Shown here: positions 62 to 5,601 of the stretch, in pieces
How positions within the stretch are numbered: position 1 is the first letter of the stretch
Layout of the letters: each line of letters begins with the position of its first letter
Source: Gammaproteobacteria bacterium
GTDB taxonomy: Bacteria; Pseudomonadota; Gammaproteobacteria; Poriferisulfidales; Poriferisulfidaceae
Direction: 5' to 3'
Assembly: GCA_028819565.1 (NCBI GenBank)
Contig: JAPPLD010000006.1
Location: 9,299-73,298, forward strand
DNA length: 64,000 nucleotides
Made by a program: the position numbers and the translations under genes
The notes under the pieces: generated by a model
Seen by the model: only the letters and a program-made list of their open reading frames with translations
Database searches by the model: none
What the model was told of the DNA's origin: nothing

Positions 62-1231
62 TCATTCATCCCCACCAGTTTCCTCCGTCTCGAATCTGGG
101 AAGTGGTTTGGGTAAATAGATAGTGTGCTTCCGAACTCCGATTTCATGCTCGATCAAGAGATCTACGAGTTTTTCTCCATCAATGAGTGTGATTGATTGA
201 GCGCGGCTATCGAGAGCGGCTTCCTTCGTTTTATTAGAGAATTTCGAAGTTGTAATGAGGGTCCCCCTAATAGCGCCGAAGCGGTAAAGCGAACCGCGAA
301 GGGCGTCGAGATCCTTGGGTGGAGTGGTCCTGCCATGTCTCTTGACTTGGATAACCTCTTTCACTGATGTAATGCCGACCTCAATGTTCGCGGTCACATC
401 GACACCGCCATCTCCTGAGCTTGCCGTTACTTCTGCATTTTCATAACCCATCTTGTCTATAAGGAATTTCACTAAATATTCAAACTGCCGGGGGTCCATG
501 CTGCGCAAGCGCTCCAGAAGGTCTTCCCGGGTCTTGTTCTTCTGAGGTTTCAACCATTCATGGAATTCCGACGTTAGACCGTTACCGGCATCTTTAAACT
601 TTCTGAGATACGTGGAACCTTCGCTGGTCAGCGAATATCTCACACCATCACGTTCTATCAAACCCCGCTCAAGGAGATTATTGATTCGTGACCGGAGACA
701 GGTCATGAAAGTGGCGGGACTGCGGAAATTGGAATTAAGTTCGAGATGGTGGCCCCAATCTTCACGAATCTCACTAACGCGTGTTGGCTCATTATTTTCA
801 ACTAAGGAAAGAAGAGCGACGAGCCCTTCTCGTTCATCAAGGCATTGCTCAGTTTGACCGGCGTCATGATTAACGAATTCTTGACCTTCCTTGGTGGGTT
901 GAAGTTTGCCACCAGATGCTTCACTGAGAAGGCTGTACTTTTGAATCAAGCCCCAGTGGCCATAGGTATACCGTGGGTTGACAGTTTTACCGCTCTGTTC
1001 CCAGATGAGTGCAGCGAGTTTGCGGTTCTTGCCTCCAAGTCGTTCAGCGATCCATTCGTCAGGATTGGTCCAGTCAACGATGTCTTGAGGCGTTCCTGTT
1101 AGATTCCAGATAGATTGATTCAATCCAGTGAGTTGTTTTCGAGACCACCCATTCCAGATTCGGAGAAGGTGGCGAACTTCGCCATATGGGGGAAAATGAG
1201 GGACACTTATGCGCGATTCATCTTGGTCCAT
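62..1231 (-). CDS. Mrr-like (type IV-like) restriction endonuclease; C-terminal Mrr_cat-type nuclease domain with ~250-aa N-terminal region
   Basis: 389-aa ORF. The C-terminal ~120 aa (…FEYLVKFLIDKMGYENAEVTASSGDGGVDVTANIEV…VKR…GAIRGTLITTS…) fits the Mrr restriction-endonuclease catalytic-domain pattern as I recall it. Lower GC than the surrounding housekeeping DNA. Confidence 0.55.
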   Translation of the reverse strand: MDQDESRISVPHFPPYGEVRHLLRIWNGWSRKQLTGLNQSIWNLTGTPQDIVDWTNPDEWIAERLGGKNRKLAALIWEQSGKTVNPRYTYGHWGLIQKYSLLSEASGGKLQPTKEGQEFVNHDAGQTEQCLDEREGLVALLSLVENNEPTRVSEIREDWGHHLELNSNFRSPATFMTCLRSRINNLLERGLIERDGVRYSLTSEGSTYLRKFKDAGNGLTSEFHEWLKPQKNKTREDLLERLRSMDPRQFEYLVKFLIDKMGYENAEVTASSGDGGVDVTANIEVGITSVKEVIQVKRHGRTTPPKDLDALRGSLYRFGAIRGTLITTSKFSNKTKEAALDSRAQSITLIDGEKLVDLLIEHEIGVRKHTIYLPKPLPRFETEETGGDE

Positions 1232-1364: not shown

Positions 1365-2588
1365 ATGGCAGGGCAGAACTCCAATGGTCTTTTCCGCACC
1401 TCCAACCGTTTCAAACCCATCTCCCATACAGACGTCTTGCCGGAACTCTCCCCTATGCCACTCCCTGAAATCGACAAGACCATAGACCACCTCATCCGGT
1501 GGTCCGAGCAGGACGACTGGGCAGAATATCAATCCGACATTCTCGCCGACCACTTCGACCCGGTCTCGGAGATGTTCGATCTTTACGATCATGAGATTAT
1601 CGATCTCATTGGTGTCGCTTCCGCACCGTTGTACGCTTTCATCATGGAGGATTTCTTCGCCACCCGGTTCGGCGACCAGGGCGAGAGGAATGTCATCGAC
1701 AGCTATCTTAAGCGGCACGGCTGGCGCGAGGATGTCCAGGGCAAACGCTACTTGGAGGCGCTCAAGGATTCCACGGCCATGCTCTACGAGATCTGCGACC
1801 TCGATCCGGGGCGCACGATTGTGATTCGCGACCTGATGCTGGGCGGCGATCCGGTCACCGTGGCGGATTCGGGCCTCCTGGATTCCGTGGAGCGTGGGGA
1901 TTGCTTTGCCGGGCGTCTTTTGGAAGTCAACGGGGAGCCGTGCCTGACCACAGGACTTCTTTACTACCCGCGCGAGGCGGCGCAGGCAGCCTGTGCGGCC
2001 CTCGACGCGACGGCCGGCCGGTTCGTGGAGTACTTCCGCGAGAAAGCAAGAAGGCATGTCGAGGAGGAGGAAGCCCCTGACGATGCCGCCCTGCGGCGGG
2101 TTTTCTTTTTGGGTCGGGCGACTAGCCAGACCCTGACGGAATTCTGGATGGCCACAGTCCTGAACCAGGTCTTGGCGGGCACGCCGTCACCTCGGAGTGC
2201 CGACGGCGAGAGGATACGATTTTCCGATGTCAGCTTCCCGGTTCGGGCGGATGAAGCGGAGGTTGCCGCCATTCTCGACAAAACCGACGTGTTCGAAAGG
2301 GATGCGGATGATGAACCATCTTGGACGTGGCTGGATTCGGGCCCACCGAAGGCGCAAACATTGGAAAACCATGAGGCAGATCCGAATTTGGAATCGGTGT
2401 TTTCGTTCCATGAGTCAGCCCTCGGGATCGTCAACCTTGAGCCTGACGCGCTCGTTCTGAGCGTCAACTCCAAGGAGCGCGCGAAGCGGGGCCGGGATCT
2501 CCTGGTGTCGTGCTTGGGCAAGCGGGTGGGGAGGCCCCGGATCACGCACCGGGATCCGAACCGGGCGCTCAAGGAGTACTGGCGGTAG
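1365..2588 (+). CDS. hypothetical acidic protein (no recognised domain)
   Basis: 407-aa ORF, divergent from the Mrr-like gene; no motif recognised. Confidence 0.4.
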   Translation: MAGQNSNGLFRTSNRFKPISHTDVLPELSPMPLPEIDKTIDHLIRWSEQDDWAEYQSDILADHFDPVSEMFDLYDHEIIDLIGVASAPLYAFIMEDFFATRFGDQGERNVIDSYLKRHGWREDVQGKRYLEALKDSTAMLYEICDLDPGRTIVIRDLMLGGDPVTVADSGLLDSVERGDCFAGRLLEVNGEPCLTTGLLYYPREAAQAACAALDATAGRFVEYFREKARRHVEEEEAPDDAALRRVFFLGRATSQTLTEFWMATVLNQVLAGTPSPRSADGERIRFSDVSFPVRADEAEVAAILDKTDVFERDADDEPSWTWLDSGPPKAQTLENHEADPNLESVFSFHESALGIVNLEPDALVLSVNSKERAKRGRDLLVSCLGKRVGRPRITHRDPNRALKEYWR

Positions 2589-2790: not shown

Positions 2791-2827
2791 GGGAATTATG
2801 TAGCAAAATCTGCAAGCGCAGGTTTCA
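2791..2827. repeat. left terminal inverted repeat of the IS1595-family element
   Basis: 37/37 bp match to the reverse complement of 5434-5470; preceded by the 8-bp target-site duplication GGCCATTT. Confidence 0.8.
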
Positions 2828-2955
2828 GCGTTTCTTGACCAGCCGATAGCGGCGGTTCAATTCCTCGTTTGACGGCATCCGGTTCTTGTACAGGTCTGGG
2901 CGGTGCGGCTTCTTCAAAAGCACCTTGCGCACGGCCTCGGTGAAGTCGTCCAGTT

Positions 2956-4155
2956 TCATTGCGTAGCCCTCCATTCGGCCATTGTTTTGCTTCCCTTGCT
3001 TCGGTTGCACCCGGAGCAGAGCAGTTGGAGATTGTCGGCGTGATCCGTCCCTCCGCGCGAGCGCGGCAGGATATGGTCAACGTCCATGACGCGGAACGGG
3101 AAATGCGTCTCGCACCCGGCGCACACGCCCTCCTGCTCGCCATACAGCCTATGGCGGTGCGTCCGGTAGTTCGGCAGTTCGCCCATGTCCGTCCGCACGG
3201 GCGGCTTTTCCAGCGCGATTGCGCCAGCAAACAGTTTCCCCCGATCCTCGGCTATCCGTTCGTCCACGAGTTTGATGGCGAGTGGCGAAAGGTCGATGCC
3301 CGCCCACTGGCGACCTAGCCGGTCTGCTACCACCAGCGCAGTAGCGCATCCGCAGAATGGATCTAAAACAAGGTCGCCGGGGTCGGTGCTGGCCTTGACG
3401 ATCCGCTCCAGCAGGGCAAGCGGCTTTTGTGTGGGGTAGCCTAGACGCTCTTTTGACGATCCGGCAATAATCGAAATGTCCCAAACATCGCGCATCGGCA
3501 AACCTTTGGTCGGCTTGTCAATTACGATCTTTCGCGTTCGGGTTTCAGGGTCTAGTATTTGGGTCTTTCCCTTGAACCGCTTCAAATAACTCTCGCTCGG
3601 CGGCTCGTAACTCACATTGAAAGTATTGTCGCCGCCCGCATAAAACAGGATCACATCGTGCATCGTTTGGAAATTACTGCTTTTGGATGGCCAACGGCGA
3701 TACGACCAGATAACCTCGTTTCTGAATTTCCCTTTTCCAAATACAGCATCGAGCATCAGTTTCAGATAGTGGCTGGCAGTCGGGTCGCAGTGCAGGTAGA
3801 TGCTCCCCGTGTCTTTTAGAACACGCCGCATTTCCATCAGCCGAACGGCCATGAAGATCAGGTAGGACTGCATACCCTTGCCGTGCGCCTGACGCGCCGC
3901 CTCTATCACTGAATACGCTGCCGGGTTGCGGTCGGCCAGTTCGCCGTGTTCGTGGACATCGACATCGTCCAGCGTCCACGCATCTTTGAATGACGCGCCC
4001 GCCGCCTTGCTTCCTATCGGGGCTTCGTAGGTGCGGTTCGAGTTGAACGGCGGATCAAGGTAGATCAGGTCGATACATTCCGAATTGATGCCGCGCAGGA
4101 CGGGCAGGTTGTCTCCCGTCCATACGCTCTCGCTGGCGAAGTTGGCTTCACTCAA
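2956..4155 (-). CDS. N6A/N4C DNA methyltransferase (beta-class, PF01555-like) fused to a C-terminal HNH endonuclease domain
   Basis: Motif IV DPPF (LIYLDPPFNS) lies N-terminal to motif I (VLDPFCGCATALV), i.e. beta-class order. The C-terminal block CAGCETH…DHILPRSRGGTDHADNLQLLCSGCNRSKG is a classic HNH. Apparent TTG start; the start overlaps the transposase stop (TTGA). Confidence 0.75.
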   Translation of the reverse strand: MSEANFASESVWTGDNLPVLRGINSECIDLIYLDPPFNSNRTYEAPIGSKAAGASFKDAWTLDDVDVHEHGELADRNPAAYSVIEAARQAHGKGMQSYLIFMAVRLMEMRRVLKDTGSIYLHCDPTASHYLKLMLDAVFGKGKFRNEVIWSYRRWPSKSSNFQTMHDVILFYAGGDNTFNVSYEPPSESYLKRFKGKTQILDPETRTRKIVIDKPTKGLPMRDVWDISIIAGSSKERLGYPTQKPLALLERIVKASTDPGDLVLDPFCGCATALVVADRLGRQWAGIDLSPLAIKLVDERIAEDRGKLFAGAIALEKPPVRTDMGELPNYRTHRHRLYGEQEGVCAGCETHFPFRVMDVDHILPRSRGGTDHADNLQLLCSGCNRSKGSKTMAEWRATQ

Positions 4156-5075
4156 GACACCAGCGCCTTGTAGGTGAGCCGCTTGCCCCCGAAGCCCCGC
4201 ACAAGGGCTTCCATGCGGTCGATGGTGTCAACCTCGCAGTTGCCCTCGTTGAGCCGGAACGCAAACTCATTGATGTAGCGATGGCAGTGCTTCTTCGACC
4301 AGTTGTGGTACACGCCATTGAAGCCGCGTTTCAGAACCGCCCATACCGACTCGATGCCGTTCGTGTGCGCCATGCCATCGACATATTCCTTTGCCGAATG
4401 ATTGACGGTGTGATGCCGATGGGCGATGCCAGCGTAGCATCCTGCTTCGTCCGTGCAGATGGTGGAGCCGGGGCGGACATGCTCGCGTACAACCGACTGC
4501 ACGGTATCCCGGTCGGTGTTCTGAATAGGCTTGGCGACGGTTTTGCCGCCACGCTCGCGCATCCCCAGCACGGCCTGTTTGCCGACTGCGCCGCGTCCGG
4601 CTTTCAGTTTCTTGTGCGAGTGTTTATTGTCCTCTTTTCCGCCCAGATAGGCTTCGTCAATCTCCACTACGCCGAACAGTTTGCCGCCATCCTCGGCGCA
4701 AGCCTCGCGGATGCGCTGGAGCAGATACCAGGCCGTCTTCTGTTGTACGCCCAGTTCCTTTGACAGTTGCATGCTGCTGATACCCTTACGGGCCGTCAGC
4801 ATGTAGTAGAGGGTTACGACCCAGTGCCGGGTGTCGAGCTTGGACGAGTGCATGACCGTTCCGGTCTTTACGGTGAAATTCTTTCGGCAGGACTTGCACC
4901 AGTAGGTGAACGGCTTGGACTTGGGGCGGCTGATTTTCTCGGTGCCGCCGCAGTGCGAGCAGGTCGGTGTGCCGCCCCAACGAACCTGTTCCAGCCACTC
5001 TATCGCCCTCTCTTCGGTGTCGAACATCTGCATGAGTTGAACGATGCTGATTGTTTCTGCCTTACGCTTGGACAT
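4152..5075 (-). CDS. IS1595-family (ISXO2-like) DDE transposase
   Basis: 307 aa. N-terminal Zn-finger CSHCGG…CKSCRK, followed by an ISXO2-like core (QLSKELGVQQKTAWYLLQRIREA…DEAYLGGK…). Good SD (GGAG) 7 nt upstream of the ATG. Confidence 0.8.
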   Translation of the reverse strand: MSKRKAETISIVQLMQMFDTEERAIEWLEQVRWGGTPTCSHCGGTEKISRPKSKPFTYWCKSCRKNFTVKTGTVMHSSKLDTRHWVVTLYYMLTARKGISSMQLSKELGVQQKTAWYLLQRIREACAEDGGKLFGVVEIDEAYLGGKEDNKHSHKKLKAGRGAVGKQAVLGMRERGGKTVAKPIQNTDRDTVQSVVREHVRPGSTICTDEAGCYAGIAHRHHTVNHSAKEYVDGMAHTNGIESVWAVLKRGFNGVYHNWSKKHCHRYINEFAFRLNEGNCEVDTIDRMEALVRGFGGKRLTYKALVS

Positions 5076-5099
5076 GTCTTATCTCCGGTTGTGCAGATT

Positions 5100-5128
5100 A
5101 TTATATACCATATAATTACAGGTGTCAA
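5100..5128 (-). promoter_or_regulatory. consensus sigma70 promoter for the transposase (TTGACA-17-TATAAT on minus strand)
   Basis: Reverse complement of 5123-5128 = TTGACA; 17-nt spacer; reverse complement of 5100-5105 = TATAAT. Lies ~25 nt upstream of the tnp ATG at 5075. Overlaps a weaker divergent plus-strand promoter-like site (TTGTGC 5089-5094 / TATAAT 5111-5116). Confidence 0.5.
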
Positions 5129-5142
5129 GCACAATTCTCACT

Positions 5143-5436
5143 ATGAGATTCATCACCCGGATCATGGCCAAAATGACGACACAACAGCGGCTCGACTGTT
5201 TGCTAAAGCACTTCAATAAACTCGCCGAAAATCAGGGCGACATGATGCAGTTGGACGGTGAAGACATCACCTTGCTAATGGACAAATGCGGCTTTGTCAG
5301 CAGGAGCGAAATCGCGTTCTACTTGGATTCACTCGCCACCCTCGGACTAATGCGAAGCAGTTGTTCCGCCGACCACACCTTGCTTGCCGCGTCGATCACA
5401 ATTGAAGGATATTGCCGATTAGACGAGATTCAGTGA
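5143..5436 (+). CDS. small hypothetical ORF inside the IS element, divergent from tnp
   Basis: ORF 5122(GTG)/5143(ATG)-5436. No SD; no recognisable domain. Its stop lies inside the right IR. May be non-coding. Confidence 0.2.
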   Translation: MRFITRIMAKMTTQQRLDCLLKHFNKLAENQGDMMQLDGEDITLLMDKCGFVSRSEIAFYLDSLATLGLMRSSCSADHTLLAASITIEGYCRLDEIQ

Positions 5437-5470
5437 AACCTGCGCTTGCAGATTTTGCTACATAATTCCC
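5434..5470. repeat. right terminal inverted repeat of the IS1595-family element
   Basis: Reverse complement of 2791-2827; followed by the target-site duplication GGCCATTT (5471-5478). Confidence 0.8.
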
Positions 5471-5601
5471 GGCCATTTCACGTGAAGGCCGTCCATGCTA
5501 AACTCCCATCAACGCCATCCCCCCCGAAAACGGAATTGAGGAGGGACTCCGAACCACCTTTAGGGTTGGAATAAATAAGGCTGACCGACCTGGAACACAT
5601 C

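Follow-up and report, generated by a model that had tools for sequence, protein, structure and literature searches.

Within a 64,000-nt stretch of gammaproteobacterial DNA (hereafter the window), the gene at 2956–4155 on the minus strand encodes a 399-aa protein in which a beta-class DNA methyltransferase (MTase) and an intact zinc-finger HNH nuclease domain form one polypeptide (hereafter MTase-HNH), both parts being recognized far beyond chance. It is carried by an intact transporter insertion sequence (IS) of the IS1595 family, the element studied here (2791–5470), as a passenger. Sequence comparisons place MTase-HNH in a large, conserved, and horizontally spread family that appears almost exclusive to marine sponge symbionts. 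We regard it as an evenly balanced proposition that MTase-HNH is a self-contained restriction-modification (RM) enzyme or addiction cargo of the IS.

Architecture and variation of MTase-HNH

Profile searches assign the protein to both PF01555 and the HNH superfamily: N6_N4_Mtase (PF01555) matches aa 28–295 (E 1e-45; 156.8 bits, against a Pfam cut-off of 26.7 bits), with profile positions 1–217 of 221 covered, and the C-terminal domain (aa 345–394; 2974–3123, minus strand, as are all coordinates within this gene) matches HNH_5 (E 5e-12; 45.9 bits), HNH (E 2e-11; 44.5 bits, cut-off 21.4 bits), and HNH_4 (E 6e-6). By NCBIfam models, the MTase part resembles YhdJ/CcrM-type adenine methylases, and the C-terminus resembles the HNH regions of IscB and Cas9. 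Sequence matches in the PDB link the HNH tail to the HNH domains of Cas9, a group II intron maturase, and McrA, and the first ~305 residues are matched in both sequence and fold by beta-class N6-adenine MTases (M.BceJIV, CcrM, M.RsrI, and M.MboIIA) and by Type III Mod. These four MTases are the best matches over aa ~10–305 (sequence E 1e-18 to 1e-13; template modelling score to target ~0.7) and have the same motif order, but they are orphan or two-gene Type II MTases that lack a nuclease domain. PADLOC models match the MTase part only (MTase_II or MTase_III).

In the translation, motif IV (DPPF, aa 34–37; 4045–4056), which forms the MTase catalytic loop, is followed by a variable segment and then by motif I (DPFCGCAT, aa 265–272; 3340–3363), which forms the S-adenosylmethionine-binding loop; the order from DPPF to FCGCA (aa 267–271) is the circular permutation that characterizes the beta class. 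The last Gly of the FxGxG-like motif I is replaced by Ala family-wide, and DPPF, by analogy with DPPY enzymes, suggests N6-adenine specificity. The HNH residues are complete (C345-x2-C348, D360-H361, N375, C380-x2-C383, and N384). Among the 120 closest database relatives of MTase-HNH, DPPF, motif I, and all eight HNH/zinc residues are identical in 120 of 120. An earlier reading of the window, made from its letters alone (the sequence-only reading), had proposed a beta-class MTase fused to a complete HNH, and the Pfam, NCBIfam, and motif-order evidence agrees with it; on the two points where that reading had allowed for error, the catalytic His and Asn prove invariant in all 120 relatives, and the C-terminus proves to be a nuclease-type zinc-finger HNH.

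No start codon other than the TTG at 4155 occurs between the preceding in-frame stop and the invariant N5, and the starts of homologues coincide with it (MSE.NF...). The linker that joins the MTase to the HNH is ~40 aa long, basic, and conserved. An AlphaFold2 (AF2) model of the fusion is of moderate quality (predicted local distance difference test score, pLDDT, 66), with a poorly modelled variable segment and two strands followed by a helix at aa 334–387.

The sequence-only reading also called the architecture non-standard for a Type II system; it is no one-off, as the size of the family shows: the 120 best database relatives are all full-length fusions (59–83% identity), full-length members number more than 120, and relatives occur at 199 loci on species-representative contigs (one genome per species). 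The best 80 of these 199 loci were examined (individual loci are designated by L numbers). Nearly all of the 80 belong to metagenome-assembled genomes (MAGs) of marine sponge symbionts from many phyla; hosts include Ca. Synechococcus spongiarum, Poriferihabitaceae, Tectimicrobiota, Arenicellales, Vicinamibacterales, Bryobacterales, Rhodothermales, many Alpha- and Gammaproteobacteria, and Dehalococcoidia, the copies in the last being syntenic and apparently vertically inherited. The exact window protein is present in one public scaffold, ROBB21-1_SAMN13943215.

With the linker and HNH together as query, 793 representative clusters were recovered at E ≤ 1e-10, and N6_N4_Mtase was also present in 64 of 81 sampled representatives of at least 200 aa. 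A search for HNH-only proteins yielded mostly short C-terminal fragments of the MTase-HNH family and no alternative architectures. Many proteins of 50–150 aa named "HNH endonuclease" in sponge metagenomes (P0121–P0201) are likewise C-terminal pieces of this family; such fragments indicate frequent truncation or frameshifting, and they may lead to overcounting of stand-alone HNH genes. In INPHARED and PLSDB, matches are confined to the methylase part (aa ~11–307), at no more than 47.5% identity, and IMG/VR gave none. The closest unfused MTase domains in the phage and plasmid sets belong to larger Mod-like proteins in helicase-methylase-nuclease operons. One plasmid match (H16, Sphingobium pMI3) that seemingly spanned the HNH was rejected as a fusion, being a 683-aa Type III Mod beside a helicase. 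In the literature searched, which did not extend to REBASE, ISfinder, and many subscription papers, no account was found of the fusion family, its recognition-segment diversity, or its carriage by IS1595 elements.

The segment at aa 149–226 (3478–3711), which occupies the position of the beta-class target recognition domain (TRD), is hypervariable by identity and distinct in GC content. Across 119 full-length relatives, mean pairwise identity is 0.79 for aa 1–148, 0.28 for aa 149–226, 0.69 for aa 227–320, and 0.80 for aa 321–399, the HNH part. The variable segment falls into 28 unalignable types in the 119 proteins and, typed separately, into 42 types in 78 loci. Ratios of non-synonymous to synonymous substitution (dN/dS), which are rough estimates for the constant parts of MTase-HNH only, are 0.15, 0.28, and 0.22 for the three parts (HNH ~0.22). 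In the window copy, the variable segment has a GC content of 49.6% vs. 57–61% in the rest of the gene. Genomes hold several paralogues that are distinguished by the TRD alone: their 85–93% nucleotide identity is confined to ~450 nt at the beginning of the gene and ~500 nt at its end, with no such similarity in the middle of the gene (the TRD) or in the flanks. By these comparisons, both catalytic scaffolds are nearly invariant and under purifying selection, and the TRD segment is exchanged among dozens of unrelated versions. By analogy, such a pattern matches the specificity modules of RM systems and would be unexpected for a housekeeping or regulatory orphan methylase. One contig (OZ000552.1) carries two MTase-HNH paralogues with different TRDs (L017 and L028, 4850–6000), both preceded by a duplicated 348-aa gene containing a poly-C12 tract.

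Long simple repeats, absent from the window copy, mark the 5′ end of the MTase-HNH gene in several relatives. At L064 (1192–1247), seven copies of GAAGAGCG lie between the coupled ATG and the conserved N-terminus; at L009 (5987–5999), a poly-C13 tract directly follows ATGATG and is in frame, and at L007 (5986–5999), in the same genome, the tract is C14 and out of frame. Further tracts are C10 at L057 (5985–5994) and C13 at L071 (5971–5983), and repeats lie just upstream of the start at L073 (5953–5963) and L035 (1–128); additional homopolymer or 8-nt repeat sites are found at the 5′ end of, or inside, genes at L051 (1736–1750) and L067 (2894–2902). Homopolymer length in long-read MAGs can err by one base, but the existence of the tracts is not in doubt; the density of repeats in the 5′ intervals is 15 times that elsewhere in the loci (Poisson P 5e-6). 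The layout is that of the contingency loci of Type III mod genes and of some Type IIG genes and suggests phase-variable expression.

The IS1595-family element and its relatives

The element is 2,680 bp long and is bounded by terminal inverted repeats (IRs) that are perfect over 37 nt: GGGAATTATGTAGCAAAATCTGCAAGCGCAGGTTTCA at 2791–2827 (plus strand) and its exact complement at 5434–5470 (minus strand). This 37-nt sequence has only these two copies within the window (chance expectation 0). An 8-bp target-site duplication, GGCCATTT, read directly on both sides, abuts the IRs at 2783–2790 and 5471–5478. The transposase (307 aa; 4152–5075, minus strand) has an N-terminal zinc ribbon and matches DDE_Tnp_IS1595 (E 1e-46) and Zn_ribbon_IS1595 (E 6e-10) in Pfam and transpos_IS1595 (200 bits) in NCBIfam; of 58 positions that are near-invariant among 28 related transposases, it retains 57, including D140, D209, E242, and K249. 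It is at most 45% identical to any transposase in the plasmid collection. The window IS is a single copy, and no empty site was found, the 24-nt junction (both flanks plus one duplication copy) being unmatched in JGI metagenomes; the evidence for insertion of this copy therefore consists of the IRs and the duplication.

A sigma-70 promoter (TTGACA-17-TATAAT; 5100–5128, minus strand), with 12 of 12 consensus matches, lies ~25 nt upstream of the transposase ATG. The transposase TGA stop and the MTase-HNH TTG start overlap by 4 nt (TTGA), and the MTase-HNH stop in turn overlaps by 4 nt (ATGA) the ATG of a basic 44-aa open reading frame (ORF) at 2825–2959 (minus strand), which is a gene call in the public assembly, has no Pfam match, and ends in the left IR; L065, the nearest related element, has a comparable small ORF in the corresponding position. 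No terminator-like site was found anywhere inside the 2,680-bp element, and an Rfam scan of it returned no RNA family. The promoter inside the IS and the 4-nt overlaps together define an operon that runs from the transposase through MTase-HNH to the 44-aa ORF, by which expression of MTase-HNH in this copy depends on the transposase promoter and, most likely, also on transposase translation.

The sequence-only reading had connected the gene with an IS, had supposed that the IS end supplied part of its N-terminus (the TTG start), and had expected its expression to depend on the transposase. The gene is indeed a passenger inside 2791–5470, but because its coordinates lie wholly within the IS (~1.3 kb from one IR and 130 nt from the other), neither IS end contributes to the N-terminus. 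Transposase-dependent expression is supported for this copy, given the shared promoter and the TTGA overlap, but does not extend to the family in general, in which more than half of the related loci are without a transposase and some have it in the opposite orientation.

An 87-aa gene (5173–5436, plus strand) is divergent from the transposase and ends within the right IR. Its product has 37 homologues of ~90 aa, all of which adjoin IS1595 transposases, in varying orientation and with or without MTase-HNH. The family has no Pfam match, but the AF2 model (pLDDT 91), which is of high confidence, has a MarR/Sso10a-like winged-helix fold and makes the protein a plausible, and probable, IS-encoded regulator.

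The GGGRATTAT... termini of the window IS also bound related elements. The end sequences GGGAATTAT and GGGGATTAT fit a presumptive ISNwi1 end consensus (ggnnatTAT), and the assignment to that subgroup is likewise presumptive. The zinc-ribbon DDE_Tnp_IS1595 transposase, IRs of ~25–40 nt, 8-bp duplication, and internal passenger genes are features shared with IS1595 transporter ISs (tISs) such as tISCpe8 and MTnSag1. In the published cases covered here, the cargo of tISs is antibiotic resistance, in the form of lnu genes (PMC5704250), whereas the cargo here is MTase-HNH, the winged-helix gene, and the 44-aa ORF.

Clustering of all flanking ORFs in the 80 loci identified IS1595 transposases as the only recurrent neighbour of the fusion, and therefore no partner nuclease, helicase, or second methylase; in particular, no Res subunit was found in the 80 loci or in the window. 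Transposase homologues (41–58% identity to that of the window) adjoin the fusion in ~30 of the 80 loci, mostly directly upstream on the same strand, with some downstream or in the opposite orientation; ~48 of the 80 have neither a transposase nor IS ends. Twelve related elements have GGGRATTAT... IRs of 21–38 nt and perfect 8-bp duplications. Multicopy elements with different duplications occur in a Vicinamibacterales genome (three copies with three duplications; L018, L019, and L021) and a Bryobacterales genome (two copies; L058 and L059). A 1,385-bp element (L009), with 32-nt IS1595-type repeats and the duplication AAATTTAA, contains MTase-HNH as its only gene and is for that reason considered a non-autonomous form.

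The 4-nt overlap of stop and start recurs as TTGA in the window and L081, as GTGA in L002/3 and L060/61, and as ATGA in L031; coupling is looser in five further element types, with a 1-nt overlap (L026 and L064) or a spacing of 3–10 nt. The transposases of the coupled elements are only 41–58% identical to the window transposase. MTase scaffolds are far more conserved than transposases, and the two are weakly correlated (Spearman 0.18); IS-borne copies have at least 15 TRD types, and the window TRD type occurs in both IS-borne and solitary copies. The weak correlation and the sharing of TRD types across contexts show that cargo has moved between IS backbones.

These ISs have a modular cargo region: in the nearest related element (L065, 5185–5996; 3,402 bp, with similar IRs), extra ORFs of ~130 and 141 aa lie between the transposase and MTase-HNH. 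A search for other copies of the window IS by its IRs found one locus, L093 (LXNI01000015.1, 1453–2764), which carries TnpB instead of MTase-HNH. This 1,296-bp element shares its termini with the window IS (GGGAATTATGTAGCAAAATCTGCAAG; 27 nt, 93% complementary), is flanked by a perfect 8-bp duplication (ATGGTTTG), and has as its sole ORF a 416-aa TnpB (OrfB_IS605 plus Cas12f1-like TNB). TnpB thus lies here inside IS1595-type IRs and a target duplication, whereas its usual setting is IS200/605 or IS607. The 8-mers duplicated at the related elements are rich in A/T, in genomes rich in GC (e.g., AAATCGAA, CTCATTTA, AAAAAAAG, and AAATTTAA). At L023 (OZ252241.1, as L018, L019, and L021), the flanks are unequal (ATCGTGAA and AAATCGAA), and the right flank is the duplication of L018; this suggests recombination between two IS copies.

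The window IS sits within an intergenic spacer, ~200 nt downstream of a 407-aa ORF (1365–2588, plus strand) that has no Pfam match in our analysis and is labelled DUF7986 in the public gene call. Beyond this ORF, a gene at 62–1231 (minus strand) encodes a 389-aa Mrr_cat protein that matches the PADLOC candidate defence family PDC-S02 (E 6e-127); by class this is a gene for a Type IV-like nuclease directed by methylation, and its distance from the IS that carries the methylase is 1.5 kb.

Candidate roles of MTase-HNH

Of the options that the sequence-only reading had listed, a single-chain RM or addiction role remains the best reading. Under it, the variable domain would recognize a short DNA sequence, which the methylase would modify wherever it occurs in host DNA; DNA carrying that sequence unmodified would be nicked by the tethered HNH or, if the protein works as a dimer, cut. 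Dimeric action is known for several beta-class methylases. The working mode would be like that of a Type IIC/IIG or Type III enzyme, with a different build. Coupling to a weakly translated transposase (TTG start and TTGA overlap) would keep the dose low. For the host, the benefit would be a portable barrier against phages and plasmids in the virus-rich surroundings of a filter feeder; the IS would profit from a cargo that helps it to be retained, either via the host benefit or via post-segregational killing. We count in favour of an RM role the invariant catalytic residues, TRD hypervariability, lack of partner genes, mobility as a unit, and 5′ repeats.

By analogy, MTase-HNH may work like Type IIG/IIC or Type III enzymes, although it is a member of neither group. 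Type IIC/IIG enzymes begin with a PD-(D/E)xK nuclease and end with a TRD, their MTase being of the gamma class, and some are switched by homopolymer tracts. Like MTase-HNH, they (MmeI, BcgI, and the phase-variable Cj0031 type) hold nuclease and methylase in one chain and replace the TRD on a constant scaffold, but MTase-HNH has a beta-class MTase, an internal TRD, and a C-terminal HNH, and its restriction activity is predicted; because the nuclease and methylase classes differ, it does not belong to their family. Type III Mod proteins (EcoP15I Mod, Mbo45V Mod, and those of mod phasevarions) are beta-class and have conserved N- and C-terminal parts around a central variable TRD, and their 5′ simple-sequence repeats are shared by several MTase-HNH relatives. 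The nuclease here, however, is a fused HNH in place of a Res helicase-nuclease, and since there is no Res, MTase-HNH is not a Type III system.

Allelic TRD diversity is documented for Type IIG genes, and transposon-like RM units bounded by IRs and an 8-bp duplication, one of them a Neisseria unit with a transposase-like gene, have been described (Furuta, Abe and Kobayashi 2010, PMC2853133). Those units are single occurrences of classical Type II or IIG/S genes, whereas the present case is that of one fusion gene found repeatedly, across phyla, in many diverged IS1595 elements that appear to be active.

Several points weigh against an RM enzyme. No characterized member of the MTase-HNH family was found in the literature, and full-length relatives are absent from the plasmid, phage, and viral collections (PLSDB, INPHARED, and IMG/VR), so that there is no cultured or REBASE-type anchor. 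Known single-chain RM enzymes pair a PD-(D/E)xK nuclease with a gamma-class MTase, and the combination of a beta-class MTase with HNH is without proven precedent. A monomeric HNH, with one active site, would nick rather than cut, and the AF2 model of the fusion (pLDDT 66, without inter-domain confidence) is uninformative on domain cooperation. Variable TRDs together with phase-variable repeats are also found in Type III mod phasevarions, which are selected for gene regulation, and the recurrent tight coupling to diverged transposases could signal a role in the transposon life cycle rather than in defence.

A more far-reaching form of the RM proposal is tentative and, in our judgement, rather unlikely to hold in full: the fusions would be an unrecognized class of single-chain RM enzymes partnered with ISNwi1-like IS1595 elements, in which nuclease and methylase are made only with the transposase via translational coupling; they would act as a methylation-based device for retention or spread, a protein-only counterpart of TnpB/IscB, and the partnership would be the vehicle of cross-phylum RM spread in sponge microbiomes. 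TnpB is reported to aid transposon retention. The likeness to TnpB/IscB lies in a nuclease encoded within a transposon and in an HNH of the IscB/Cas9 type, but MTase-HNH has neither a RuvC domain nor a guide RNA, and discrimination would be by methylation.

Selection for methylation alone, either for phasevarion regulation or for protection of the IS or other DNA against foreign restriction, with the HNH as an auxiliary (e.g., for DNA binding or a repair nick), is unlikely, although phase-variable repeats and swapped TRDs are the hallmarks of Type III mod phasevarions, the nearest unfused relatives are Mod-like MTases in helicase-MTase-nuclease operons, and orphan MTases are common on mobile elements. 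A dispensable or purely DNA-binding domain would be expected to lose DH/N/N in some lineages, but no HNH catalytic residue or zinc ligand varies in any of the 120 relatives, and purifying selection on the domain matches in strength that on the MTase motifs; moreover, regulatory orphan MTases usually keep one specificity.

It is quite unlikely that MTase-HNH is a homing-type selfish gene, for which the IS is one vehicle only, the HNH nicking or cutting unmethylated alleles or genomes that lack the gene, repair spreading the gene, and the methylase protecting carriers. In its favour, the similarity of paralogues in several genomes begins at the start codon and ends at the stop codon; the HNH is closest to the nicking-type HNH of group II intron maturases, IscB, and Cas9; truncated remnants are many; and an element with the same IRs carries TnpB, another transposon-associated nuclease. 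No pairs of empty and filled alleles showing a gene-sized insertion were found, however; a short, TRD-defined site would be spread genome-wide rather than forming one homing site; and the syntenic Dehalococcoidia copies appear to be vertical. In practice, homing overlaps with the addiction version of the RM role.

A transposition accessory, in which the HNH, like TnsA in Tn7, cuts the donor backbone or the strand that is not transferred, or the methylase, like Dam for IS10, sets the methylation of the IS ends and so times transposition, is very unlikely. The pairing of transposase and fusion in ~30 of 80 loci, and the recurrence of overlapping or closely spaced transposase stops and MTase starts despite transposases of 41–58% identity, speak for it, but transposase and IRs are missing from over half of the loci, gene order and orientation are reversed in some elements, and close IS relatives that have the winged-helix gene but lack the fusion transpose and are multicopy. 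The scaffolds are also more conserved than the transposases, with a Spearman correlation of 0.18, as for exchanged cargo. A methylase aimed at the IS ends was considered separately and rejected, because elements that share the same GGGRATTAT termini carry different TRDs.

That MTase-HNH is a decaying or inert passenger, whether a pseudogene or a methylase gene beside which an IS inserted by chance, is hardly credible: truncated family fragments are common in metagenomes, but the window copy is full length, with all motifs, perfect IRs and duplication, and translational coupling to an intact transposase, and the unit of transposase and MTase-HNH is multicopy elsewhere with different target duplications.

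Implications for RM diversity and sponge symbionts

Were the fusion merely a methylase cargo, the finding would be ordinary. If MTase-HNH is an active single-chain RM enzyme, it would represent a new build (beta-class MTase, internal TRD, and C-terminal HNH) in a class dominated by one architecture, and its dozens of natural TRD variants on a compact scaffold of ~400 aa would be a resource for the discovery and engineering of enzymes. The genomes of sponge symbionts are reported to be enriched in RM genes, which have been laterally transferred (PMC8163846); if the RM role is correct, small IS1595 elements (1.4–3.4 kb) would be a concrete vehicle for this enrichment and transfer. The elements also raise the question of whether transposons recruit nucleases for their own retention, with an HNH-methylase in the element described here and TnpB in its sister element.

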